A program made the position numbers and the translations under genes. The notes below the pieces were generated by a model that did not search any database, was not told the DNA's origin, and saw only the letters and a list, made by a program, of their open reading frames with translations. Of a stretch of DNA of 46,078 nucleotides, positions 7,930-20,668 are shown piece by piece (within the stretch, counting starts at the first letter, position 1; the number at the start of each line of letters is the position of its first letter). Source of the stretch: a virus. Lineage: Duplodnaviria; Heunggongvirae; Uroviricota; Caudoviricetes. Location of the stretch: the IMG/VR virus record IMGVR_UViG_2675903417_000003, one strand, 5' to 3'.

Positions 7930-9560
7930 AGCTGTAATGTCCCCTTTGAACCATTCTAAAATGTCCCCAGACAATTCTCTGGGGGATTTTTCATGATCAA
8001 AGAGACTGTTACGATGAGTCATAAGGAACTCCACCGACTTCAGATTATTCAGGAACAAGCTGCGGCACGCATTGGCATTTCTATTCGGCAGGTTAAACGT
8101 CTGGTGCAACGGTATAGAAATGAAGGGCCTTCTGGTCTGGTTTCCCACCGACGTGGAAAGCGTCCTAATAGTTCCTTTTCTACTGAATTCAGAGCAACAG
8201 TAATTTCACTCCTCAAAGGCCGTTACGCTGATTTTGGACCTACGTTTGCGTGCGAAAAATTGCGCGAGATACACGGTTTATCTTTATCCGTTGAAACTCT
8301 CAGAAAGTGGATGATAGAAGAGGGGTTATGGCGTGAACGCCGTCGTAAAATTGCCCGTATATATCAACGCCGCATGCGACGACCATCTTACGGTGAACTG
8401 ATCCAGATTGATGGCTCACCTCATGACTGGTTTGAAAATCGAGGCCCCAGATGTACACTGATCGTTTTCATTGATGATGCCACCAGTGCGTTGATGGCGT
8501 TGCGTTTTGTGCCTGCTGAAACAACCCGGGCTTACATGGAAACCCTCCGGGGTTACCTTAATGATCATGGCGTACCGCTCGCTCTCTACTCTGATAGACA
8601 CAGTATATTCAGGGTAAATAACCCAGAGCGGGAAGGTGAGCTGACCCAGTTCACTCGTGCGATAAAGACACTGGGCATCGAGCCAATCCATGCCAACAGC
8701 CCGCAGGCAAAAGGGCGGGTAGAGCGCGCCAATCAGACACTACAGGACAGGCTGGTCAAAGAAATGCGGCTTCAGAATATCAGTGATATTGAAACAGCAA
8801 ATGCATGGTTGCCGACCTTTATTGAAGCCTATAACAACCGGTTCGCTACGTCGCCTCGTACTACTGATAATGCTCATCTTGATGTGCACCATTCTGAAGA
8901 GGAACTGGGTTATATCTTCAGCCTACAGGCGAAGCGCGTTCTGTCTAAAAATCTCACTTTCCAGTACAAAAGCAGTGCGTTTCAGGTACGCAGTGAGGGC
9001 CGGGGATATCGACTTAGGCATTCGGTTGTTACTGTATGCGAGAACTTTGACGGTGAAATTAACGTTCTGTATGACGGGAAAGCGCTGGGCTGGGAAAAGT
9101 ATGTTGATGGCCCGGAGCCTATACCACTGGATGATGAAAAGAGTGTCCATGAACGAGTGGATAATGCCCGTATTGATTTACGCTCAAAATACTATGTTAA
9201 ACCTAAAGCTGACCATCCCTGGCTTACGCGCCGAACGCAAAGTCATCAGCAAGTTAAGCCCCCGAAGTTACCTAAAAAGAAGCCTGATCCCGATAAAAAA
9301 GATTGAAACCAAGATCGATTCGGTTGAGTGCATATCCATTCATAGGGTAGATTCTTAAGTCGCGTTTCTGGTGTTCATTTTCGGGTGGTTTGTTACTTGT
9401 TTTACCGGGGATATGCCAGAAACGCGCTGAGTCAGTCTGGGCGGTGCGCGTAATGAGGCGTTATGGTAAATAGCCTATGCTAATGTCCGCTAAGAGCAAG
9501 AAGCGGAAGTTGGCAGTTTTGTGGACTGTCCCCACAAAAGTGACTACAGAAATAGTTGCA
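7930..9560 (+). mobile_element. Insertion element carrying a DDE transposase (boundaries approximate, terminal repeats not resolved)
   Basis: Single 437-aa rve-type transposase inserted between the replication region and flxA. Confidence 0.4.
7993..9306 (+). CDS. DDE transposase with N-terminal HTH and rve integrase catalytic core
   Basis: 437 aa; HTH ISIRQVKRLVQRYRNEG; catalytic motifs IQIDGSPHDW, LYSDRHSIF and GRVERANQTLQDRL. Confidence 0.8.
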   Translation: MIKETVTMSHKELHRLQIIQEQAAARIGISIRQVKRLVQRYRNEGPSGLVSHRRGKRPNSSFSTEFRATVISLLKGRYADFGPTFACEKLREIHGLSLSVETLRKWMIEEGLWRERRRKIARIYQRRMRRPSYGELIQIDGSPHDWFENRGPRCTLIVFIDDATSALMALRFVPAETTRAYMETLRGYLNDHGVPLALYSDRHSIFRVNNPEREGELTQFTRAIKTLGIEPIHANSPQAKGRVERANQTLQDRLVKEMRLQNISDIETANAWLPTFIEAYNNRFATSPRTTDNAHLDVHHSEEELGYIFSLQAKRVLSKNLTFQYKSSAFQVRSEGRGYRLRHSVVTVCENFDGEINVLYDGKALGWEKYVDGPEPIPLDDEKSVHERVDNARIDLRSKYYVKPKADHPWLTRRTQSHQQVKPPKLPKKKPDPDKKD

Positions 9561-9705
9561 ATTCATAATTGATCATGGGTTGTCAGTTAAACTCGTGGCG
9601 ATTTAAATAGACTAATTGGGAGTGCGTCCATTACTTATATCTTGTAATGTTAACTATCAGAAATGATACAAAGATAATATGTCTTTAAAGAAAAGGCTGA
9701 TGGCG

Positions 9706-9728
9706 AAAAGTGGCCCGATGAGGGCCAC
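9706..9728 (-). terminator. Putative intrinsic terminator of flxA
   Basis: GTGGCCC-GATGA-GGGCCAC hairpin followed on the minus strand by TTTTCGCC. Confidence 0.45.
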
Positions 9729-9742
9729 AATACGGCTGTCAC

Positions 9743-10075
9743 TTAGACGTAAATATCAATGGTGCCAGCGGTATTTGTATCGTCTTTTTTCTCTTCTTTT
9801 TTATCAGGCTGAACTGTCGCGTCTTCATTCTTTTTCTCTGCCTGCTGCCTTAACAACTGCTCCAGTTGAGCCCAGAGGCTTTCAATTTGCTTCTGTACCA
9901 ATGCAGCCATTTCTTTTTTCTGCTGTGTCGTCATCCCCTCTTCCGATGAGATTTTCCCAAGCTTTTCAGTCAGCACCTGAATTTGTCTTGTGATTTTGGC
10001 TATTTCTGATGTTCCTTCCGGGGCGGAGTTGTTTGAAATAACGGTTGAGGTATTTCCCTGAATTGTGACAGACAT
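9743..10075 (-). CDS. flxA: FlxA-like protein (FliA-regulated)
   Basis: 110 aa MSVTIQGNTSTVISNNSAPEGTSEIAKITRQIQVLTEKL...; sigma-28 promoter upstream. Confidence 0.8.
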   Translation of the reverse strand: MSVTIQGNTSTVISNNSAPEGTSEIAKITRQIQVLTEKLGKISSEEGMTTQQKKEMAALVQKQIESLWAQLEQLLRQQAEKKNEDATVQPDKKEEKKDDTNTAGTIDIYV

Positions 10076-10097
10076 AGATTTCTCCTTTTAAAAAAGC

Positions 10098-10124
10098 ACT
10101 ATCGGCATGCACAAAAAAATCTTT
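10098..10124 (-). promoter_or_regulatory. Sigma-28 (FliA) promoter of flxA: TAAAGATT-N11-GCCGATAG
   Basis: Minus-strand read TTAAAGATTTTTTTGTGCATGCCGATAGTG, 7/8 and 7/8 matches to the TAAAGTTT-N11-GCCGATAA consensus. Confidence 0.65.
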
Positions 10125-10277
10125 AATCGTATTTCTTGTGTCATTAATTGTTTGATGTTCAGATTGTTTTCCTCGCGGGCTGGCGCGCCTCAGAAAGTAA
10201 AGCTTGTTGACAGGGGTAAACGTTCGGCAATAATTTTCTGCCGCATGCGGGTGTTGCATAAAACGTGTTACGTTCCT

Positions 10278-10583
10278 TTATCGACAGGTCAGGTCACCGC
10301 TCACCCGCCGACGAGAAAGCAACACTGACATGCTAAAGCAAAAAATAGATGAATAAGTTGAGTTGTGCATATGTAGCCTGACCGTCACAAAGTATATGGT
10401 GTCTGTACCAGTAAGATGATGGCCGGACTCTTTAAAAACGAGCTGACCTGCACAATACAGGATGGACTTAGCAATGGCTGCTCCTGGCACAAAGCGGACA
10501 GTGATCACCGTTCTTACGACTACTTTCTGACTTCCTTCGTGACTTGCCCTAAGCATGTTGTAGTGCGATACTTGTAATGACAT
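10278..10583 (-). CDS. Hypothetical protein (YdfV-like position)
   Basis: 101-aa ORF between flxA and relB; composition only moderately protein-like. Confidence 0.35.
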   Translation of the reverse strand: MSLQVSHYNMLRASHEGSQKVVVRTVITVRFVPGAAIAKSILYCAGQLVFKESGHHLTGTDTIYFVTVRLHMHNSTYSSIFCFSMSVLLSRRRVSGDLTCR

Positions 10584-10596
10584 TTGTAATTACAAG
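10571..10596 (+). promoter_or_regulatory. relBE operator (relO-like inverted repeat CTTGTAAT-N-ATTACAAG)
   Basis: cttgtaatgacatttgtaattacaag lies immediately upstream of the relB start. Confidence 0.6.
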
Positions 10597-10607
10597 AGGT
10601 GTAAGAC

Positions 10608-10847
10608 ATGGGTAGCATTAACCTGCGTATTGACGATGAACTTAAAGCGCGTTCTTACGCCGCGCTTGAAAAAATGGGTGTAACTCCTTCTGAAGCGCTT
10701 CGTCTCATGCTCGAGTATATCGCTGACAATGAACGCTTGCCGTTCAAACAGACACTCCTGAGTGATGAAGATGCTGAACTTGTGGAGATAGTGAAAGAAC
10801 GGCTTCGTAATCCTAAGCCAGTACGTGTGACGCTGGATGAACTCTGA
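10608..10847 (+). CDS. relB: RelB antitoxin
   Basis: 79 aa MGSINLRIDDELKARSYAALEKMGVTPSEALRLMLEYIADNERLPFKQTLLSDEDAELVEIVKERLRNPKPVRVTLDEL. Confidence 0.9.
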   Translation: MGSINLRIDDELKARSYAALEKMGVTPSEALRLMLEYIADNERLPFKQTLLSDEDAELVEIVKERLRNPKPVRVTLDEL

Positions 10848-11134
10848 TGGCGTATTTTCTGGATTTTGACGAGCGGGCACTAAAGGAATGGCGAAAGCTG
10901 GGCTCGACGGTACGTGAACAGTTGAAAAAGAAGCTGGTTGAAGTACTTGAGTCACCCCGGATTGAAGCAAACAAGCTCCGTGGTATGCCTGATTGTTACA
11001 AGATTAAGCTCCGGTCTTCAGGCTATCGCCTTGTATACCAGGTTATAGACGAGAAAGTTGTCGTTTTCGTGATTTCTGTTGGGAAAAGAGAACGCTCGGA
11101 AGTATATAGCGAGGCGGTCAAACGCATTCTCTGA
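10847..11134 (+). CDS. relE: RelE mRNA interferase toxin
   Basis: 95 aa MAYFLDFDERALKEWRKLGSTVREQLKKKLVEVLESPRIEANKLRG...; start overlaps the relB stop. Confidence 0.9.
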   Translation: MAYFLDFDERALKEWRKLGSTVREQLKKKLVEVLESPRIEANKLRGMPDCYKIKLRSSGYRLVYQVIDEKVVVFVISVGKRERSEVYSEAVKRIL

Positions 11135-11205
11135 ACCAAAGCATGACATCTCTGTTTCGCACCGAAGGTGACACTTCTGCTTTGCGTTGACAGGAGAAGC
11201 AGGCT

Positions 11206-11361
11206 ATGAAGCAGCAAAAGGCGATGTTAATCGCCCTGATCGTCATCTGTTTAACCGTCATAGTGACGGCACTGGTAACGAGGAAAGACCTCTGCGAGGT
11301 ACGAATCCGAACCGGCCAGACGGAGGTCGCTGTCTTCACAGCTTACGAACCTGAGGAGTAA
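11206..11361 (+). CDS. hokD: Hok-family type I toxin (HokD/RelF-like)
   Basis: 51 aa MKQQKAMLIALIVICLTVIVTALVTRKDLCEVRIRTGQTEVAVFTAYEPEE; below the ORF-track size cutoff. Confidence 0.85.
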   Translation: MKQQKAMLIALIVICLTVIVTALVTRKDLCEVRIRTGQTEVAVFTAYEPEE

Positions 11362-11429
11362 GAGACCCGGCGGGGGAGAAATCCCTCGCCACCTCTGATG
11401 TGGCAGGCATCCTCAACGCACCCGCACTT

Positions 11430-11456
11430 AACCCGCTTCGGCGGGTTTTTGTTTTT
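11430..11456 (+). terminator. Intrinsic terminator after hokD
   Basis: AACCCGC-TTCG-GCGGGTT stem-loop followed by a T-run. Confidence 0.6.
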
Positions 11457-11577
11457 ATTTTCAACGCGTTTGAAGTTCTGGACGGTGCCGGAATAGAATC
11501 AAAAATACTTAAGTAGCGCGCAGGGATAAGAGGGATGGTCCCTTAAAGGGGAGAGCTAATTATCCGGAAGGATTCTG

Positions 11578-11829
11578 ATGATGAACATCGAAGAACTGCG
11601 TAAAATTTTTTGTGAAGATGGCCTCTATGCTGTGTGCGTTGAAAATGGAAATCTTGTTAGTCATTACCGCATTATGTGTTTGCGAAAGAATGGGGCTGCG
11701 TTAATTAATTTTGTGGATGCTCGGGTCACGGACGGATTTATCTTGCGCGAAGGTGAGTTTGTCACTTCATTACAGGCATTGAAAGAGATCGGAATAAAAG
11801 CTGGCTTTTCTGCTTTTTCAGGAGAATAA
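11578..11829 (+). CDS. rem: Rem-like prophage protein
   Basis: 83 aa MMNIEELRKIFCEDGLYAVCVENGNLVSHYRIMCLRKNGAALINFVDARVTDGFILREGEFVTSLQALKEIGIKAGFSAFSGE. Confidence 0.75.
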   Translation: MMNIEELRKIFCEDGLYAVCVENGNLVSHYRIMCLRKNGAALINFVDARVTDGFILREGEFVTSLQALKEIGIKAGFSAFSGE

Positions 11830-11895
11830 ACTCATCTACAATCTTGCGCGGGGCTGAACTCCCGCTGAGTAACACCGTGCCACCGGAGAAAACCG

Positions 11896-12174
11896 ATGGC
11901 ACGCAACGCAAAATATTACAATTCTGATAATTCGCCCGTTCTTGCCTGCACGCACGGGCGGTATTCTCACGCATTCAAGTCTGAATGGTTCCAGCACCCT
12001 CCATGCACTGCAGAACAGGCCGAATGGCTGATTCATTCTTACCGCAGGCGCGGGTTCGAGGTTAAGAAAGCTCTCAGTCTCGACTATCGGCACTGGATAA
12101 TCTCTGTCAGGCTGCCTTATTCCGAACGCCCACCACGTGCGTCCCGCACTTTCCAGCAACGGATCTGGAGGTAA
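11896..12174 (+). CDS. Hypothetical protein
   Basis: 92-aa ORF with GGAG about 9 nt upstream; ends 2 nt before the proposed ydfU start. Confidence 0.35.
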   Translation: MARNAKYYNSDNSPVLACTHGRYSHAFKSEWFQHPPCTAEQAEWLIHSYRRRGFEVKKALSLDYRHWIISVRLPYSERPPRASRTFQQRIWR

Positions 12175-12175
12175 C

Positions 12176-13225
12176 GTGCGGGTATTACTTAGACCTGTTC
12201 TGGTGCCTGAGCTTGGGCTGGTGGTCCTTAAGCCGGGCCGTGAATCCATACAGATATTTCATAATCCTCGAGTGCTGGTGGAACCGGAACCAAAAAGCAT
12301 GCGTAATCTGCCATCCGGAGTCGTTCCTGCCGTTCGCCAGCCGCTGGCGGAAGACAAAACATTGCTGCCGTTTTTTAGTAACGAACGGGTGATTCGTGCT
12401 GCTGGCGGCGTTGGCGCATTGTCCGACTGGCTATTACGTCATGTTACATCCTGCCAGTGGCCTAATGGCGATTACCATCACACTGAAACAGTCATTCACC
12501 GTTATGGTACCGGCGCAATGGTGTTGTGCTGGCACTGCGACAACCAACTGCGTGACCAGACATCGGAATCACTGGAGCTGCTTGCTCAACAAAATCTGAC
12601 AGCATGGGTGATTGACGTCATCCGTCACGCAATAAGCGGTACGCAGGAGCGGGAATTATCTTTGGCTGAATTATCCTGGTGGGCGGTCTGCAATCAGGTG
12701 GTGGATGCACTACCTGAGGCTGTATCGCGTCGTTCGCTGGGATTACCAGCGGAAAAAATCTGCTCGGTGTACCGCGAAAGCGACATCGTACCGGGAGAGC
12801 AGACCGCCACCAGCATATTGAAACAACGCACAAAAAATCTTGCACCGTTGCCTTACGCCCACCAGCAACAAAAATCACCACAGGAAAAGACGGTGGTAAG
12901 CATCACCGTTGATCCAGAGTCTCCGGAATCTTTCATGAAGCTGCCTAAACGTCGCCGCTGGGTTAAGGAGAAATACACACGTTGGGTTAAGACACAGCCG
13001 TGTGCTTGCTGCGGTATGCCAGCCGACGATCCGCATCATCTGATTGGTCACGGGCAGGGCGGAATGGGAACAAAAGCACATGATCTCTTTGTGTTGCCTT
13101 TGTGCAGAAAGCATCACAACGAGCTGCATACGGATACAGTGGCATTTGAAGATAAGTATGGCTCCCAACTGGAGCTGATATTTCGTTTTATCGATCGCGC
13201 GCTGGCAATTGGCGTACTGGTGTAA
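12176..13225 (+). CDS. ydfU: YdfU-like DUF968 protein with C-terminal HNH-type nuclease motif
   Basis: GTG start at 12176 preceded by GGAGG gives 349 aa; CACCGMPADDPHHLIGHGQGG...CRKHHNELH motif; nin-region position upstream of Q. Confidence 0.7.
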   Translation: MRVLLRPVLVPELGLVVLKPGRESIQIFHNPRVLVEPEPKSMRNLPSGVVPAVRQPLAEDKTLLPFFSNERVIRAAGGVGALSDWLLRHVTSCQWPNGDYHHTETVIHRYGTGAMVLCWHCDNQLRDQTSESLELLAQQNLTAWVIDVIRHAISGTQERELSLAELSWWAVCNQVVDALPEAVSRRSLGLPAEKICSVYRESDIVPGEQTATSILKQRTKNLAPLPYAHQQQKSPQEKTVVSITVDPESPESFMKLPKRRRWVKEKYTRWVKTQPCACCGMPADDPHHLIGHGQGGMGTKAHDLFVLPLCRKHHNELHTDTVAFEDKYGSQLELIFRFIDRALAIGVLV

Positions 13226-13238
13226 GTGGAGAGCGAGC

Positions 13239-13991
13239 ATGAACCTTGAAGCCTTACCAAAATATTACTCCCCAAAATCTCCAAAATTGAGCGATGACGC
13301 TCCAGCGACAGGCACCGGTTGTTTAACAATTACGGATGTAATGGCAGCGCAGGGGATGGTGCAGTCGAAAGCACCACTTGGGTTGGCCTTATTTCTGGCA
13401 AAAGTTGGTGTTCAGGACCCTCAGTTTGCGATTGAAGGCCTGCTAAATTACGCGATGGCACTGGATAACCCGACATTGAACAAATTGAGTGAAGAAATCC
13501 GGTTACAGATTATTCCTTACCTCGTGAGTTTTGCCTTTGCTGATTACTCCAGGTCTGCGGCAAGTAAGGCTCGCTGTGAGCATTGTTCAGGTACGGGATT
13601 TTATAATGTATTGCGCGAAGTGGTGAAACACTACAGACGCGGGGAATCTGTAATCAAGGAAGAATGGGTGAAGGAACTATGTCAGCATTGCCATGGTAAG
13701 GGCGAAGCCAGCACAGCGTGCAGAGGGTGTAAGGGTAAAGGGATTGTTCTGGATGAAAAAAGAACCCGGTTTCATGGCGTACCGGTATATAAGATTTGTG
13801 GGCGTTGTAATGGAAACCGGTTTAGTCGTTTACCGACCACGCTGGCACGACGTCATGTCCAGAAGCTGGTACCAGACCTGACCGATTATCAGTGGTATAA
13901 GGGGTATGCGGACGTCATTGGTAAACTGGTAACAAAGTGCTGGCAGGAAGAAGCATACGCGGAAGCGCAATTGAGGAAGGTGACGAGATAA
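13239..13991 (+). CDS. quuQ: Late-gene antiterminator Q
   Basis: 250 aa; zinc-binding cysteines CEHCSGTG, CQHCHGKG, CRGCKGKG; GGAGAG Shine-Dalgarno. Confidence 0.85.
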   Translation: MNLEALPKYYSPKSPKLSDDAPATGTGCLTITDVMAAQGMVQSKAPLGLALFLAKVGVQDPQFAIEGLLNYAMALDNPTLNKLSEEIRLQIIPYLVSFAFADYSRSAASKARCEHCSGTGFYNVLREVVKHYRRGESVIKEEWVKELCQHCHGKGEASTACRGCKGKGIVLDEKRTRFHGVPVYKICGRCNGNRFSRLPTTLARRHVQKLVPDLTDYQWYKGYADVIGKLVTKCWQEEAYAEAQLRKVTR

Positions 13992-14023
13992 ATGATTTTT
14001 GCTGAAGATGGCGACATGATGTT

Positions 14024-14051
14024 TGCATTTTTCAAAAAATATGGATAAAAT
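14024..14051 (+). promoter_or_regulatory. Candidate late promoter (PR'-like): TTGCAT-N16-TAAAAT
   Basis: Sigma-70-like hexamers starting 33 bp after the Q stop. Confidence 0.35.
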
Positions 14052-14412
14052 TTTTTCAACGATGGGCTTTGTATACCCGACGTTAAGAAAAAGTAGAAAA
14101 CCTGCTGATGAGCGGGTTTTGTGCTTTAAATGGGGCAATGGTAATGTTGAATCTCATCCCGGGACTCATGTCTGTTAACTTATTATTTAGCTGGTGACTT
14201 GGTTATTTGCCTGATGTTTAAAATGTTTTCTTCCAGTACAATGTCCCTAAACACAATGAGTCTGCTTATTATATTATTAGCAGAGCTATTACGGCCAAAG
14301 TACAGCATAAGCTTTTAAAGCCAATCAACCAGTCATCAAGACAGACGGGGTTATTCATAAAAACTCTCCATGTGTGATCCGATGGGGCCTGAAATTAAAG
14401 CTTTAATATAGC

Positions 14413-14625
14413 TCATGAAAGGTAAACATTGGCAGCTGAAGGGCCACGCAGACCATTTATCCGGCAAAATTCCACGCGTAATCCGGTGGTAATTTCTTCT
14501 GCATCGCGGAGATTGAGCGCTGAAACATGAAGCTGGACATCGATACGACCATCGGATGGGGTGATAAGACCCTTGCCGCTTTTGCCGTCAAAGGTTTTGA
14601 CAATTCCTGTCATTTTACGGGACAA
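14413..14625 (-). CDS. cspF: Cold-shock protein paralog (CspF/CspH-like), probable TTG start
   Basis: 70 aa [31 protein letters not shown]...; AAGGA sits 6 nt upstream of the TTG at 14625; the first ATG is codon 5. Confidence 0.8.
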
Positions 14626-14925
14626 AAAAATTCCTTAATACTGATAACTTGGCGCACTATACACACGTTCCTGAAGAAAGCTATAGTTTTTTGATGGGGT
14701 TGAAGATGGCTGGATGTCTAAAATAAACATTGCTTCATATGTTCAACTATGCGTTAATGATTGCGTCGGTTTGAAGAACAGACGATATACGAAGTAGTTT
14801 ACTAAAGCAGTTCTCATTTCAGGTGTTATTCACTTATTCCTTCTTTGAGTCTCTCCAATTAAGTACGAAGTCGTTTCTGTTATGCAAACCATTTATGCCG
14901 AAAGGCTCAAGTTAAGGAATGTAGA

Positions 14926-15141
14926 ATGTCAAATAAAATGACTGGTTTAGTAAAATGGTTTAACGCTGATAAAGGTTTCGGCTTTATTTCTCCTGTTGAT
15001 GGTAGTAAAGATGTGTTTGTGCATTTTTCTGCGATTCAGAATGATAATTATCGAACCTTATTTGAAGGTCAAAAGGTTACCTTCTCTATAGAGAGTGGTG
15101 CTAAAGGTCCTGCAGCAGCAAATGTCATCATTACTGATTAA
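14926..15141 (+). CDS. cspB: Cold-shock protein CspB-like
   Basis: 71 aa [71 protein letters not shown]; long 5' UTR and AAGGAA Shine-Dalgarno. Confidence 0.9.
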
Positions 15142-15423
15142 AATTCATCGCTCGTCTGTATACGATAACGAAGAAGGCTGATGCCTGAGTAGAGATACGG
15201 ACAGAGTAGTGAATATTGGATCTCTTTAATAAAAAGTAAGGAGGTCCAATACATGAAACAATGGCTAGCATATTTGGCAAAATCTTAATCAGGAAAAGTA
15301 TGCTAACCATTGTGGTGAAGTGCAGGTTTGCTGCATGAATAGTTTTACAGCAGAAGCTAACTGCTGGCATGGCAAAACAAAGTGCGTAAGTGGATGACTC
15401 CCACAAAAAGCACCACAATCTCA

Positions 15424-15446
15424 AACCCGCTCAGGCGGGTTTTTTA
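15424..15446. terminator. Intrinsic terminator between cspB and the convergent zinc-ribbon gene
   Basis: AACCCGC-TCAG-GCGGGTT hairpin plus T-run. Confidence 0.6.
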
Positions 15447-15504
15447 TTATCTGCTTTAAATATATTATTAAAATATAAAAAATACTTGTTACTAATAAAA
15501 TCAA

Positions 15505-15675
15505 TCAGGCTACAGCTTTAAGATTTGTCTGGAATACTTTGTTGCAATGAGGGCAGATCAAAAGGGCACCTTTTTGTACTCTTGAAAAACTGTGTTCTGA
15601 CTCTTGGGTGCAGTTTGGGCAGGAACATTTAACGAGATAATTACGGCGTGATTTTGAGTTTTTACGTTCTGACAT
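15505..15675 (-). CDS. Small zinc-ribbon protein (CxxC-x17-CxxC), YnfU-like
   Basis: 56 aa MSERKNSKSRRNYLVKCSCPNCTQESEHSFSRVQKGALLICPHCNKVFQTNLKAVA; AGGAAAAG Shine-Dalgarno. Confidence 0.55.
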   Translation of the reverse strand: MSERKNSKSRRNYLVKCSCPNCTQESEHSFSRVQKGALLICPHCNKVFQTNLKAVA

Positions 15676-15894
15676 AGGCTTTTCCTGTATAAATGGCCGT
15701 ATACAGTACACTAAATATGAAAACATTTCTCGTATTATTATTTTATATATGACTTTCTTTCAAAATAATTACCCACATTTTTAATGTGTATGTTTTTTTA
15801 GCGCCGTTGAGAACAACGTGTGCTGTCAAAACTACCCCGTAGACTCCGATCTTTTCAAACATATTGCACCATCCGTGTACATCGGGGTGAGGAT

Positions 15895-16110
15895 ATGAAA
15901 TCAATGGATAAGTTAACAACAGGTGTTGCCTATGGCACATCGGCGGGTAATGCTGGTTTCTGGGCATTGCAGTTACTCGATAAAGTAACTCCGTCACAGT
16001 GGGCTGCAATCGGTGTGCTGGGTAGCCTGGTTTTTGGCCTGCTGACGTATCTGACAAATCTTTATTTCAAGATTAAAGAAGACAGGCGTAAGGCTGCGAG
16101 AGGAGAGTAA
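15895..16110 (+). CDS. essQ: Class II pinholin (phage 21 S-like) with dual-start motif
   Basis: 71 aa [71 protein letters not shown]; Met1 and Met4 both present; GGGGTGAGG Shine-Dalgarno. Confidence 0.85.
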
Positions 16111-16114
16111 TCCA

Positions 16115-16422
16115 ATGACTCAAGACTATGAACTGGTTGTGAAAGGAGTCCGTAATTTTGAGAATAAAGTTACGGTAACTGTAGCCTTACAGGACAAAGA
16201 ACGCTTTGACGGTGAAATTTTTGACCTGGATGTCGCCATGGACCGTGTTGAAGGAGCTGCGCTGGAGTTTTATGAGGCAGCAGCCAGAAGGAGCGTCCGG
16301 CAAGTCTTCCTGGAAGTAGCAGAAAAATTGTCAGAAAAAGTTGAGTCTTATCTGCAGCATCAATACTCCTTTAAGATTGAAAATCCTGCCAATAAGCACG
16401 AGCGTCCTCATCATAAATATCT

Positions 16423-16426
<4 letters not shown>
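16115..16426 (+). CDS. ydfR: YdfR-like protein between holin and endolysin
   Basis: 103-aa ORF; stop overlaps the endolysin start (ATGA). Confidence 0.65.
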
Positions 16427-17459
<1,033 letters not shown>

Positions 17460-17821
17460 GGTAATATTAAATCGGAACATTTACATCGCGGAATGTAAAA
17501 TTTAAATAAAAAGGACTCTTCCATGAGCCAAAATTCCTGAAATCTTAAGGGTAAGATAAAAGGTCTTAATCAGAATGACACGTTTTATTAATAAATAAAG
17601 CTATTCTTTCATTGCTGTGTTTTTCTTTACAAAAGTAATCCTTGCTATGGGTGGTTAATCATGCGTTAATGGTGTTCTGGTTTGTTACAAATTTATCTGA
17701 AGCAGTCATTGTTATAATTTTATTATTTGTACCTCTTGAGATTTCCTTGTTGGTTTTTCTCTCTGATATTTTTTTTCGGACCATTCTGCCCAAGGGCTAA
17801 TTTCTTCAAAAGGTAATAATT

Positions 17822-18034
17822 ATGTCTAACAAAATGACTGGTTTAGTGAAATGGTTTAACCCTGAAAAAGGTTTTGGTTTCATCACGCCGAAAGATGGCA
17901 GCAAAGATGTGTTTGTCCATTTCTCAGCAATTCAGAGCAACGATTTCAAAACATTAACTGAGAATCAGGAAGTTGAATTTGGTATTGAGAACGGACCTAA
18001 AGGTCCTGCCGCTGTTCATGTAGTGGCGCTTTGA
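17822..18034 (+). CDS. cspI: Cold-shock protein CspI-like
   Basis: 70 aa [70 protein letters not shown]; long AT-rich 5' UTR. Confidence 0.9.
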
Positions 18035-18233
18035 GGTAGACAATATTACAAACCATATTCACTTTAGATGCCCGTGTTGTCATGGTTCCCAGTATAGAAC
18101 ATCATCTTTTGATGTTTCTGACATGAATCCTTTCGGGGCAAAATGTATCTTTTGTAAATCAATGATGATTACATTTGATAATATTTCACAATACTTAAAT
18201 GCCAGCCGTCTGTCGTTGGATTTAAAAAAGTGA
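18024..18233 (+). other. Open frame encoding a zinc-ribbon-like peptide with no canonical start codon
   Basis: Frame HFRCPCCHGSQYRTSSFDVSDMNPFGAKCIFCKSMMITFDNISQYLNASRLSLDLKK; ends just before the terminator at 18241. Confidence 0.3.
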
Positions 18234-18240
18234 AAATGAA

Positions 18241-18261
18241 GGCTCCTTCGGGAGCTTTTTT
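18241..18261 (+). terminator. Intrinsic terminator
   Basis: GGCTCC-TTCG-GGAGC hairpin followed by TTTTTT. Confidence 0.55.
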
Positions 18262-18305
18262 GCTTGGTGTCTATTCGATGGATACTCACATACTACGGTA
18301 ACATC

Positions 18306-18536
18306 ATGAAAAAAATCATAGTTTTTTTTAACTCTGAACCAGCAGTGGTAGTGCCAGCGATGACTGGAGTTAACACCATCATGCGTGAATATCCAAATGG
18401 CGAAAAAACACACCTTACTGTAATGGCCGCAGGGTTTCCATCTCTGACCGGAGATCATAAAGTCATTTATGTAGCCGCGGATCGACATGTTACTTCAGAA
18501 GAAATTCTGGAAGCAGCAATAAGGCTCTTGAGTTGA
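18306..18536 (+). CDS. Hypothetical protein (76 aa)
   Basis: ORF track 18264..18536; first ATG at 18306; weak Shine-Dalgarno. Confidence 0.4.
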   Translation: MKKIIVFFNSEPAVVVPAMTGVNTIMREYPNGEKTHLTVMAAGFPSLTGDHKVIYVAADRHVTSEEILEAAIRLLS

Positions 18537-18705
18537 TTTGATGCTATTGCATTGATAATTCAGGAAAATTCTCTTTGTCTGTTTGTGTAAAATTTAGACT
18601 ATCGTATGTTGATTATTGCGATGTTTCATCTTATCTTTTACACGTTTGCACCATATAATCGACTTACTGTGTAACTGGAAAGTCATAACAGACTAAAAGA
18701 GGAAA

Positions 18706-18881
18706 TGATGAATATTGAAAACTTAAAAACAAAAGCAGAAGCAGATATTTCTGAATATATAACAAAAAAAATTATTGAACTTAAGAAAAAGACCGGGAAA
18801 GAAGTTACCAGTATTCAGTTTACCGCACGGGAAAAAATGACGGGTCTTGAAAGCTATGATGTCAAGATTAATTTAATCTGA
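18706..18881 (+). pseudogene. gnsB: GnsB-like gene with an apparent 1-nt deletion
   Basis: ATG ATG AAT ATT GAA then a stop after 6 codons; shifting one base restores NLKTKAEADISEYITKKIIELKKKTGKEVTSIQFTAREKMTGLESYDVKINLI. Confidence 0.5.
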
Positions 18882-19032
18882 TGTATTCAATAATAAAATT
18901 TATCCATAAACCTCGTTTTTACGGGGTTTTGTTATATTTGAATGGTTCCGAATATCTAAATCACAATTGTTGATGGTTTTTATTAAACCAATGCAGTCCG
19001 GCTCAGGAGTGAGAGAAGCCGGACGTTATGGT

Positions 19033-19443
19033 TTAGCGTGGTAAGATCTGTGTAGTTTTCTGGATGCTTTCAGTAAATAGTAATGAATTATCAAAGGTAT
19101 AGTAATATCTTTTTTGTTCGTGGATATTTGTAACCCACCGAAAAACTCCTGCTTTAGCAAGGTTTCTTCTGTATTCCTGAAATGTGATCTCTCTGGATTT
19201 CAGCTTATTAGAGGTCGTTTCTATAAGATGCCTATCCTTTGAAAATTTGACAGACACAATGTTTTTTAGGCCCTTTAATAACACTGTATTATCATTTTTT
19301 AATACAATATGAACATTCTCTGTGGCTAAATAGTAAATGTAATGTGAGACATTGTGACGTTTTAGCTCAGAATAAAACCATTGATAGTTTAAATCGTTTC
19401 GAACTTTATCAAATATTTGTTTAAAAATGACTACCTGATCCAT
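19033..19443 (-). CDS. ydfO: YdfO-like protein
   Basis: 136 aa from [11 protein letters not shown]...; GGAAGG Shine-Dalgarno before the second Met of ORF 19033..19458. Confidence 0.75.
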
Positions 19444-19500
19444 AGATAAACCTTCCATGTGATATGAGGGGGCGTAGTCTGCACGATTATCTAAATTGCT

Positions 19501-19734
19501 TCAATCTGGTCTGACCTGTTTTCTGAGCAATTCAGTAATGTCACTCTTTTCTTTGTTTGCTTCAGAAGAAACTCTTTTTTCTGAGCACAGTCTCCGGCGG
19601 CAGGCTTCAATGACCCAGGCTGAGAAATTCCCGGACCCTTTTTGCTCAAGAGCGATGTTAATTTGTTCAATCATTTGGTTAGGAAAGCGGATGTTGCGGG
19701 TTGTTGTTCTGCGGGTTCTGTTCTTCGTTGACAT
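19501..19734 (-). CDS. ynfO: Small ribbon-helix-helix-like protein (YnfO-like)
   Basis: 77-aa ORF MSTKNRTRRTTTRNIRFPNQMIEQINIALEQKGSGNFSAWVIEACRRRL... Confidence 0.65.
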   Translation of the reverse strand: MSTKNRTRRTTTRNIRFPNQMIEQINIALEQKGSGNFSAWVIEACRRRLCSEKRVSSEANKEKSDITELLRKQVRPD

Positions 19735-19933
19735 GAGGTTGCCCCGTATTCAGTGTCGCTGATTTGTATTGTCTGAAGTTGTTTTTACGTTAAGTTGATG
19801 CAGATCAATTAATACGATACCTGCGTCATAATTGATTATTTGACGTGGTTTGATGGCCTCCACGCACGTTGTGATATGTAGATGATAATCATTATCACTT
19901 TACGGGTCCTTTCCGGTGATCCGACAGGTTACG

Positions 19934-19945
19934 GGGCGGCGACCT
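19934..19945 (+). other. Lambda-type cosN cohesive-end sequence GGGCGGCGACCT
   Basis: Exact 12-mer in the context ...CCGACAGGTTACG|GGGCGGCGACCT|CGCGGGTTTTCGCTATTTATGAAAATTTTCCGG, 177 bp upstream of Nu1. Confidence 0.85.
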
Positions 19946-20122
19946 CGCGGGTTTTCGCTATTTATGAAAATTTTCCGGTTTAAGGCATTTCCGTTCTTCT
20001 TCGTCGTAACTTAATGTTTTTATTTAAAATACCCCCTGAAAAGAAAGGAAACGACAGGTGCTGAAAACGAGCTTTTGGGCCTCTGTCGTTTCCTTTCTCT
20101 GTTTTTGGCCGTGGAATGAACA

Positions 20123-20642
20123 ATGGAAGTCAACAAAAAGCAGCTGGCTGACATTTTCGGTGCGAGTATCCGTACCATTCAGAACTGGCAGGAACAGGGA
20201 ATGCCCGTTCTGCGAGGCGGTGGCAAGGGTAATGAGGTGCTTTATGACTCTGCCGCCGTTATAAGATGGTATGCCGAAAGGGATGCTGAAATTGAGAACG
20301 AAAAGCTGCGCCGGGAAGTTGAAGAACTGCGGCAGGCCAGCGAGACAGATCTCCAGCCAGGGACTATTGAGTACGAACGCCATCGACTTACGCGTGCGCA
20401 GGCCGACGCACAGGAGCTGAAAAATGCCAGAGACTCCGCTGAAGTGGTGGAAACCGCATTCTGTACTTTCGTGCTGTCGCGGATCGCAGGTGAAATTGCC
20501 AGTATTCTCGACGGGATCCCCCTGTCGGTGCAGCGGCGTTTTCCGGAACTGGAAAACCGACATGTTGATTTCCTGAAACGGGATATCATCAAAGCCATGA
20601 ACAAAGCAGCCGCGCTGGATGAACTGATACCGGGGTTGCTGA

Positions 20643-20668
<26 letters not shown>
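20123..20668 (+). CDS. nu1: Terminase small subunit Nu1
   Basis: 181 aa MEVNKKQLADIFGASIRTIQNWQEQGMPVLRGGGKGNEVLYDSAAV..., lambda Nu1-like. Confidence 0.95.

Follow-up and report, generated by a model that had tools for sequence, protein, structure and literature searches.

The window, a 46,078-nucleotide stretch of Caudoviricetes DNA (IMG/VR record IMGVR_UViG_2675903417_000003), carries the toxin–antitoxin (TA) genes relB and relE and, directly downstream, the Hok-family toxin gene hokD. Positions 10400–11560 (1161 nt) match E. coli K-12 MG1655 and many other strains at 100% identity; in the genomes of these strains, relB, relE, and hokD are annotated genes. The neighbours are those of the Qin prophage (dicA/dicC, flxA, ydfV, rem, ydfU, and ydfT; annotated as "cryptic prophage Qin"), and this K-12 form is present, at a coverage of at least 80%, in 1162 of 5426 complete E. 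coli genomes. The rest of the window matches MG1655 in blocks of 97.7–99.8% identity, with slight departures, and the source strain would thus appear to be K-12-like, not necessarily MG1655 itself. The locus is already known: it is relBEF (relB-relE-hokD), the operon carried by a Qin-type cryptic prophage of E. coli. In E. coli K-12 prophage Qin, the operon was reportedly described by Bech in 1985, Gerdes in 1986, Gotfredsen and Gerdes in 1998, and Kasari in 2013; compared with it, the locus studied here shows no differences, either in nucleotide sequence or in its neighbours flxA, ydfV, rem, ydfU, and ydfT. The operon comprises the following features:

10544–10572, forward strand: PrelBE promoter, read by eye (−35 TTGCCC at 10544–10549, 17-nt spacer, −10 GATACT at 10567–10572)
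10572–10595, forward strand: relO operator, found by inverted-repeat search (half-sites TTGTAATGACAT at 10572–10583 and TTGTAATTACAA at 10584–10595)
10608–10847, forward strand: relB, antitoxin and autorepressor of 79 aa (Pfam RelB, E=1e-32, 112 bits)
10847–11134, forward strand: relE, ribosome-dependent mRNA interferase toxin of 95 aa (Pfam ParE_toxin, E=2e-13, 51 bits; WP_000323025.1)
11206–11361, forward strand: hokD (relF), Hok/Gef membrane toxin of 51 aa (PF01848 HOK_GEF, 82.9 bits, E=1.2e-23; WP_000813254.1)
11430–11457, forward strand: intrinsic terminator of the relBEF transcript (7-bp stem with five GC pairs at 11430–11447, then a T-run)

RelB and RelE form a type II TA pair, in which an RHH antitoxin precedes a RelE-fold toxin in a bicistronic arrangement with a 1-nt overlap (TGATG). 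The relO operator consists of two 12-bp half-sites with four [A/T]TGT[A/C]A hexads and overlaps the promoter. Its half-sites, which the initial annotation had called relO-like, are identical to those that were mutagenised and footprinted and that are bound by RelB2 and RelB2-RelE (PMC2812701). The putative PrelBE hexamers have 8 of 12 matches, which places them under the threshold of the standard promoter scan, and their position fits the published span of relO, from −10 to +17/+20 of the start site (PMC2812701). In northern blots, a single full-length mRNA is revealed by probes against each of relB, relE, and relF; its induction is abolished by deletion of PrelBEF, and its relF part accumulates after toxin induction (PMC3598666). 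These published data, together with the parts visible in the sequence, bear out the proposal of the initial annotation that relB, an overlapping relE, and a 51-aa Hok-family toxin gene form a single transcription unit that ends in a terminator. Consistently, no internal promoter reaches the scan threshold, and the single terminator lies after hokD. RelE is produced at a level approximately 10-fold below that of RelB (PMC2812701), so that output falls along the operon.

The hokD gene retains several elements of a hok locus, listed here together with a relic of the mok reading frame:

11172–11354, forward strand: mok-frame relic, in frame −1 with respect to hokD, without a start or Shine–Dalgarno (SD) sequence of its own but open through that gene
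11192–11196, forward strand: hokD SD, AGGAG; position 11192 is the first hok-derived base, with the break point at 11191/11192
11344–11347, forward strand: TACG at hokD codon 47 (Tyr), a TadA A-to-I editing motif (Tyr to Cys), identified from sequence
11411–11423, forward strand: fbi, for fold-back inhibition, a 3′ UTR element of hok with complementarity to the 5′ tac in L003 and hokC; its own tac partner is missing

The SD is a good one, placed 9 nt from the ATG, and the HokD coding sequence is a literature-characterised toxic control in an overexpression toxicity assay (bioRxiv 2025.08.07.668861). At codon 47, 6% of the hokD mRNA is edited, and the cysteine at this position is coded by RNA editing in HokC, HokD, and HokE (PMC12214031). 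The fbi element accounts for the minus-strand matches of 11403–11426 to the 5′ tac of hokC and of L003, a hokD homologue on a phage-plasmid. No 5′ tac/ucb partner for fbi was found, and similarity to intact loci starts at 11192. When the 3′ fragment is folded in isolation, both the SD and the AUG are paired, and fbi pairs next to the SD with UGCGUUGA at 11183–11190 (z = −3.45). In a pairing-probability model of the complete relBEF mRNA, the hokD SD and initiation region are as accessible as those of relB (SD 0.26, region 0.42). We therefore rejected folding as proof of translational silence, as the full-mRNA ensemble leaves the hokD start no less accessible than the relB start.

The regulatory region upstream of the hokD SD is missing. 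The initial annotation had seen no sok-like promoter by eye, and the covariance model agrees: Rfam sok (RF01794) has no match in the window at E≤10, and as positive controls it scored 114.9 bits on L003, 116 on L014 (an intact chromosomal allele), 106 on L009, and 94.7 on L025. The place that Psok and sok occupy in such loci, 14–100 nt 5′ of the hok ATG, has been replaced. Similarity to L003, L014, hokC, hokB, L009, and L010 begins only at 11190–11192, and positions 11192–14260 of the window match L014 at 99.2% identity, starting exactly at 11192. In intact loci, the −35 of Psok (TTGACC, on the antisense strand) adjoins the SD box, so the break removes both this promoter and the sok gene. We could map the break to a single base, 11191/11192, within the Psok −35, which goes beyond the published accounts that we found. 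Lost with this region are the hok promoter, tac/ucb, the mok start, the Sok target, and the sok gene. A search for a hok-overlapping mok frame equipped with an SD and a start likewise found only the C-terminal relic, which has the same frame relation to hokD as mok has to hok in L003. It lacks an ATG, is closed on its 5′ side by a TGA at 11169–11171, and offers as its only start a TTG at 11187 without an SD.

The lack of canonical parts at hokD was put down to a "genetic rearrangement" as early as Pedersen & Gerdes 1999 (cited in PMC7232551, PMC12214031). An intact allele that encodes an identical HokD protein and adjoins rem is common in E. coli, occurring in approximately one quarter of complete genomes; this ancestral form and the K-12 allele are a natural matched pair for experiments. 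Canonical hok/sok/mok loci (R1 parB, chromosomal hokC/sokC and hokB/sokB, and the intact hokD of E. coli CFSAN061770, at 2513–2837 of L014) resemble the present locus in the Hok reading frame, the SD-ATG box, long-range pairing between the start region and the 3′ end of the coding sequence, the 3′ stem-loops, and fbi. In contrast to them, the locus has no hok promoter, tac, ucb, mok start, Sok target, sok, or Psok, and is transcribed from a type II TA promoter. Other chromosomal hok genes of K-12 have likewise been disturbed by mobile DNA near the regulatory region, namely hokA by IS150, and hokC and hokE by IS186. At hokD, however, the disturbing element is a transposase-free TA cassette that provides a new regulated promoter instead of merely breaking the locus. 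Its extent and ends are as follows:

10484–11192, forward strand: relBE cassette of 709 bp, 99–100% identical in unrelated plasmid and chromosome contexts
10477–10513, no strand: left imperfect terminal inverted repeat, with its partner at 11164–11200
11164–11200, no strand: right imperfect terminal inverted repeat, with its partner at 10477–10513
11135–11191, forward strand: relE–hokD spacer of 57 nt, the right end of the cassette, not derived from a hok leader

The cassette has sharp boundaries that are shared between a Klebsiella IncHI1B context, a Citrobacter IncFIB context, and many others; its ends are marked by ...CTGCTTTGCGTTGACA running up to the boundary and by CTGGCACAAAGCGGAC starting at the boundary. 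Local alignment of the two inverted repeats yields a score of 29, compared with 11.5 ± 2.1 for shuffled sequences, and none of 2000 shuffles reaches 29. The cassette encodes no transposase or recombinase, and no direct repeats indicative of target-site duplication lie beside it in any context examined. We also found no empty/filled site pair and no locus in which the cassette lies between the two halves of one hok locus; in L112 and L194, the sequence beyond tacAT likewise yielded no second inverted repeat. YdfV and the other open reading frames of the left flank were considered as a decayed inverted hok and rejected, with no Pfam match at E≤10.

In 24 of 41 distinct contexts, the right end of the cassette abuts a leaderless hok gene, and these genes are of many types. 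IncHI1B/IncHI2-type and other plasmids of Klebsiella, Enterobacter, Citrobacter, and Kluyvera carry the same 709-bp cassette (99–100% identity), the same spacer, and the same junction base before the hok SD as the present locus. They differ in the hok gene itself, which is R1-like or of another kind (e.g. MKLPPSNLLW..., MKMPNQP..., HokE-like, or MMPQRTF...). We found no published report of the inverted-repeat cassette and its linkage to these genes. The linkage of the cassette to many leaderless hok genes could be a sign of a type II/type I hybrid module under selection. We tentatively consider, as a plausible reading that falls short of being probable, that relB-relE-hok is a recurrent, selected three-gene module, in which a mobile cassette was repeatedly joined to varied hok starts and thereby stripped them of mok and sok. 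In such a module, a membrane-killing toxin may stand under RelB/RelE transcriptional control, with a type II antitoxin as the sole "antitoxin" of a type I toxin. The dN/dS values of cassette-linked hok genes (0.03–0.25) were set aside as functional evidence: divergence among the hok alleles far exceeds that among the cassettes, and the signal may predate the fusions.

The spacer is conserved 3′ of relE in diverged cassettes as well, with a sharp end at ...GCGTTGACA. We also examined it as a decayed hok leader with a remnant of the mok start. A MAFFT alignment was suggestive, but local alignment against six leaders performed no better than shuffled sequences (p 0.3–0.7), and this origin was rejected. 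One 8-mer, GCTTTGCG, is common to the spacer and the R1 leader at an equal distance from the SD, which is weakly notable (p ~0.016). The spacer also holds an upstream open reading frame (uORF) of 15 codons, from an ATG at 11143 to a TGA at 11188–11190.

Taken together, we judge it probable that hokD is a truncated hok gene on the relBEF mRNA, restrained by RelB–RelE repression and by the loss of mok coupling, with no dedicated antitoxin RNA. The initial annotation had left the restraint of hokD unclear; this was a fair question, which the literature answers only in part. On the proposed account, everything 5′ of the hok SD would have been exchanged at 11191/11192 for the right end of the 709-bp relBE cassette, with the hok SD, coding sequence, 3′ stem-loops, fbi, and terminator kept. 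The hokD gene would then have no antitoxin RNA of its own and would be expressed solely from the relBEF mRNA, as its 3′ cistron. Its restraint may have up to three layers. The first would be the repression of its only promoter by RelB2 and RelB2-RelE at relO, an activity demonstrated in the literature. As a second layer, the mok-coupled translational activation on which canonical hok genes depend appears to be lost, so that the bare hok SD probably supports only weak translation. The third layer, a speculative one, is that the encoded Tyr47 form possibly needs rare A-to-I editing to gain its C-terminal cysteine. Upon degradation of RelB or induction of other toxins, the operon would be derepressed and a hokD-containing 3′ fragment would accumulate. 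Points counted against this account are the usable-looking SD, the toxicity of the coding sequence on overexpression, the undecisive folding, and the recurrence of the architecture.

Another reading takes hokD for an inert relic: prophage mosaicism would have produced it recently and by accident, and it would never be translated and would be heading for decay. We regard this as possible, though we lean against it. It accords with the view that all K-12 hok loci but hokB are inactivated, hokD by rearrangement (PMC7232551, PMC12214031). Moreover, the flank and the intact allele share 99.2% identity; the event is thus a recent one, and that hokD still has an intact reading frame proves nothing. 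Decay variants also exist, with the SD changed from GGAG to GGGG (L281), the cassette end fused within hokD near codon 29 (L173/L253), or an IS inserted in the SD (L005, L095, and L213). However, the K-12 form is widespread among complete E. coli genomes (the 1162 of 5426 noted above), and intact leaderless hok frames of many types lie at the same cassette end in other genera. In addition, five cassette-linked hok genes have premature stops in the mok frame and an intact hok frame. The occurrence of relBE beside leaderless hok genes in many replicons fits a gene in use better than an inert relic.

The remaining alternatives supply hokD with a substitute regulator. The 15-codon uORF could couple hokD translation to that of relE and thus replace mok; it starts 8 nt past the relE stop, ends 1 nt ahead of the SD and 15 nt ahead of the hokD ATG, and crosses UGCGUUGA, the pairing partner of fbi in the 3′ fragment fold. 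Such coupling nevertheless appears highly improbable, as the uORF has no SD, also occurs in cassettes without hok, and has its ATG changed to AGG in the diverged cassettes L033, L038, L040, L044, and L047, though the surrounding nucleotides are conserved. With its ATG not conserved, the uORF was rejected as a conserved mok substitute. Equally, a cryptic antisense RNA from weak promoter-like sites inside hokD could act as Sok, which we consider highly improbable. A relaxed scan of the minus strand yields two sites with 8 of 12 matches, compared with 0.66 ± 0.9 expected in shuffles: one with −35 TAAACA at 11253–11248 and −10 TAACAT ending at 11224, the other with −35 TTAACA at 11230–11225 and −10 TAGCCT ending at 11201. 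In the same scan, the true Psok of L003 also reaches only 8 of 12. However, the relaxed scan does not discriminate, and neither site passes the standard promoter scan, which returned nothing relevant. Both sites lie in sequence common to the intact allele and so did not arise with the loss of sok; no terminator-like minus-strand hairpin was found, and no Rfam family matches in the window. Repression in trans by the Sok RNAs of other chromosomal hok loci is scarcely conceivable: E. coli has several sok genes, with nothing specific in favour of this idea, but the Sok target is the mok initiation region of the leader, which is wholly absent at hokD, and chromosomal Sok RNAs failed to protect even against R1 hok (PMC9841398).

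As the reference relBEF operon, the locus itself contributes nothing new, and that hokD lacks sok and mok has been on record since 1999. Beyond the published accounts that we found are the single-base definition of the break, the frequency of the intact ancestral allele, and the presence of the cassette directly ahead of varied leaderless hok genes on plasmids from several genera. If this linkage is selected, it would represent a naturally occurring instance in which a type II antitoxin controls a type I toxin, and would argue against hokD being merely dead.

The relB-relE-hokD locus is the relBEF operon, which is already known. Positions 10400-11560 of the window match E. coli K-12 MG1655, and many other strains as well, at 100% identity, and in these genomes the genes are annotated as relB, relE and hokD. 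The neighbours are dicA, dicC, flxA, ydfV, rem, ydfU and ydfT; a RefSeq feature at the locus carries the text "cryptic prophage Qin". This K-12 form is found at a coverage of at least 80% in 1162 of 5426 complete E. coli genomes. Compared with MG1655, the window aligns at 99.84% over 9122-20651 and at 97.7-99.1% in the remaining blocks, with gaps between them; it comes from a related strain whose Qin-like prophage is mosaic. The initial annotation had placed relB, relE and a Hok toxin gene in one transcriptional unit, and published northern data bear this out: relF (i.e., hokD) is transcribed together with relBE, a single full-length mRNA is seen with relB, relE and relF probes alike, deletion of the relBEF promoter abolishes induction, and the relF portion is the most abundant fragment once toxin is induced (PMC3598666). 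The individual parts were likewise recovered as first described, including the operator ahead of relB, the overlap of relE with relB, the 51-aa toxin downstream of relE and the terminator beyond it:

10572-10583 and 10584-10595, upstream of relB: relO half-sites TTGTAATGACAT and TTGTAATTACAA, inverted repeats in the sequence
10608-10847, plus strand: relB, ORF of 79 aa (Pfam RelB, E=1e-32)
10847-11134, plus strand: relE, ORF of 95 aa (Pfam ParE_toxin, RelE superfamily, E=2e-13)
11192-11196, plus strand: hokD SD, AGGAG, read from the sequence
11206-11361, plus strand: hokD, ORF of 51 aa (Pfam HOK_GEF, E=1e-23)
11430-11447, plus strand: GC-rich terminator hairpin followed by a T-run (terminator scan)

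The relE ATG and the relB TGA have one base in common, and the two operator repeats equal the relO half-sites that mutagenesis and footprinting had identified (PMC2812701). The putative PrelBE hexamers (-35 TTGCCC and -10 GATACT, 17-nt spacer, 10544-10572) agree with the published relO position of -10 to +17/+20 (PMC2812701).

The toxin gene is a hok gene, but the locus is not a hok/sok locus. No sok-like element had been recognized initially, and the Rfam model RF01794, which spans the entire hok leader as far as the hok AUG, gave no match on either strand of window 9500-12500 (E<=10), so that no clear sok homologue emerged. Positive controls scored 106-116 bits, namely the phage-plasmid hokD homologue L003 (114.9 bits; 91% identical to the window hokD), the chromosomal allele L014 (116 bits) and the IncF hok locus L009 (106 bits). 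Similarity between the window and every intact hok locus tested begins at 11190-11192, just 5' of the hok SD. In K-12, the annotated sokC and sokB have their starts about 49 nt 5' of the hok ATG, and the -35 of their promoters (TTGACC or TTGCCG, antisense strand) directly adjoins the complement of the hok SD; because the break falls exactly there, Psok, sok and the Sok target were lost together. At the Psok -35 position the antisense strand of the window instead reads GTCAAC, and no properly spaced -10 accompanies it. An overlapping mok frame, proposed as a further check, persists only in part: the frame (hok ATG at +1, as in L003) is still open over hokD, but it has neither an ATG nor an SD, being shut upstream by a TGA at 11169-11171 and left with a TTG at 11187 as its sole start. 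The fbi element (11411-11423) is kept and is still complementary to the tac elements of L003 and hokC, and the 3' side of hok is intact.

As cited in PMC7232551 and PMC12214031, Pedersen & Gerdes (1999) reported that hokD is without canonical components owing to a genomic rearrangement. When a chimeric query consisting of the L003 leader and the hokD-rem segment of the window was compared with complete E. coli genomes, chromosomal loci were covered in one piece at 96.4%. Intact and truncated hokD alleles thus coexist in E. coli, since the chimeric-query form reaches a coverage of at least 80% in 1311 of the 5426 genomes. One such allele, L014 from the chromosome of E. coli CFSAN061770, contains at 2513-2837 an intact hokD locus with a complete leader adjoining rem-ydfU-ydfT, and its HokD is identical to the window protein (WP_000813254.1). 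The match of L014 to window 11192-14260 (99.2%) begins exactly at 11192, and alignment revealed nothing in common upstream, so the "major rearrangement" is a clean replacement of all DNA 5' of the hok SD. Further downstream, the hokD 3' UTR and terminator (11370-11451, plus strand) match the Rfam model of isrK, an sRNA of the Salmonella Gifsy-1 prophage, at 25 bits (E=0.012), below the gathering score of 50. This match, which recurs at L014 2846-2927 and lies 5' of rem and of ydfT, an antiterminator gene, may be due to chance.

A discrete relBE unit took the place of the hok leader. Its 709 bp (window 10484-11192) are found again, at 98.8-99.6% identity and with the same boundaries and unrelated flanks, in the Klebsiella IncHI1B plasmids L002 and L005 and the Citrobacter IncFIB plasmid L013, and are also present in many species-representative genomes. 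Copies at 99-100% identity were seen in many unrelated plasmid and chromosome contexts of Enterobacterales (L002, L005, L013, L015-L049 and others). The ends of the cassette are imperfect inverted repeats of about 30-37 bp (10477-10513 and 11164-11200), whose alignment score of 29 was reached in 0 of 2000 shuffles (11.5 +/- 2.1). The 57-nt spacer 3' of relE belongs to the cassette: local alignment gave no significant similarity between it and hok leaders, and it is retained behind relE even in cassettes of only about 80% identity, always ending in ...GCGTTGACA. We saw no transposase in the cassette and no target-site duplications in the contexts compared, and found no pair of filled and empty sites. 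An annotated ydfV ORF (10278-10583, minus strand, 101 aa) runs antisense over the relB promoter, relO and the left inverted repeat into flanking DNA; its product has no Pfam match, and because the ORF crosses a recombination joint, it may not be a real gene. In two metagenomic loci, L112 (7860-8220) and L194 (180-520, minus strand), the same spacer of about 55 nt, GGAG and hok occur without relBE, adjoining a divergent DUF1778 antitoxin/GNAT acetyltransferase toxin pair. This means that relBE is not the sole partner of the spacer, and it complicates any simple cassette model.

Linkage of the cassette to leaderless hok genes is recurrent. From the pooled genome, plasmid, metagenome and viral-contig loci, only cassette ends preceded by 100 nt with a match of at least 80% to relE and the spacer were retained, which left 41 distinct right flanks, 24 of them hok-related:

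18 contexts: Hok ORF whose start lies 3-22 nt beyond ...GTTGACA, in the same orientation throughout
6 contexts: hok-derived, with an IS inserted in the GGAG box (L005, L095, L213), a broken hok (L026), a decayed SD (L129), or a complete hok leader, inverted and meeting the cassette at the ATG (L025; Rfam, 94.7 bits, minus strand)
17 contexts: unrelated

The usual junction is A/GGAGAAG (slash, joint), and others are A/GAGAAG, A/GGGAGCATGAAC, A/GATATG (HokE-like, SD lost), A/GATGTTAGCCATG and A/TGGAGGGGCTATG. Leaderless hok genes at the equivalent of window 11192 were noted in L002, L016, L018, L021, L024, L028, L039, L043, L096, L123, L127, L161, L203 and L274. Rfam scans of relBE loci gave no sok or leader match between relE and hok, and in five linked genes the mok frame has premature stops while the hok frame is intact. 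The linked Hok proteins are of several types, and six loci have more than 1.1 kb of left context in common yet have different sequences beyond the right end of the cassette. The linked hok genes show a synonymous divergence of up to 0.76, against an identity of 99-100% for the cassettes; the hok partner has therefore been swapped or captured repeatedly. The pattern could stem from homologous exchange via the SD-ATG box, which is conserved, from one-ended events at a cassette end that is active, or from selection for having hok under PrelBE. Between the relBE cassette and hok, an IS481-family (ISKpn28-like) element lies in or beside the hok SD box in L005 (1558-2660), L010 (about 560-617), L095 and L213, and the hok SD region looks like an insertion hot spot. 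In L173, L253 and two more loci, the right end is fused inside hokD at about codon 29 (...GTTGACA/CTGCGAGGTACGAATCC), a deletion that extends from the cassette end into the toxin gene.

As far as the sequence allows, the question of how hokD is restrained would be answered by relBE promoter control and lost translational activation, with no RNA antitoxin. The only documented hokD promoter is PrelBE; RelB2 and RelB2-RelE repress it at relO, and degradation of RelB or an excess of RelE relieves the repression (PMC2812701, PMC3598666). A canonical hok depends for its translation on that of mok, and mok translation in turn becomes possible through 3' processing and the tac/ucb switch (PMC9841398). 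Since all mok, tac and ucb control is lost in hokD, hok biology suggests that ribosomes would load straight on the hok SD. When the 3' fragment (11135-11452) is folded in silico (z = -3.45), its start region is predicted to pair with the 3' end of the CDS, an interaction shared with the intact L003 mRNA, and the orphan fbi pairs with UGCGUUGA (11183-11190) beside the hokD SD. This 8-mer, at the very end of the cassette, is a perfect complement of fbi positions 11413-11420; since the 8-mer comes from the cassette itself, the match is probably a coincidence. For the complete 873-nt mRNA, a partition-function model gives unpaired probabilities of 0.26 for the hokD SD and 0.42 for the initiation region, not below those of relB, so predicted folding would be no proof of translational silence. 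Codon 47 of hokD is TAC followed by G (11344-11347), a TadA A-to-I editing motif; about 6% of hokD mRNA is reportedly edited, changing Tyr to Cys, and in HokB a Cys at this site is important for toxicity (PMC12214031). Rare editing of this codon is a possible additional brake. Other forms of control are unlikely: two weak minus-strand promoter-like sites inside hokD (8/12) could yield an antisense RNA, but both are equally present in the intact allele; the ATG of a 15-codon uORF (11143-11190) that might govern hokD translation is not conserved; and a trans-acting Sok would be without a target in hokD.

The finding is real and was correctly interpreted, but the locus is already known, with HokD as a putative product of native relBEF. 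Within the accessible, incomplete literature we found no published report of relBE cassettes linked to leaderless hok genes, and this recurrent linkage may be new. The locus alone is of low interest; only the linkage might reward more study.
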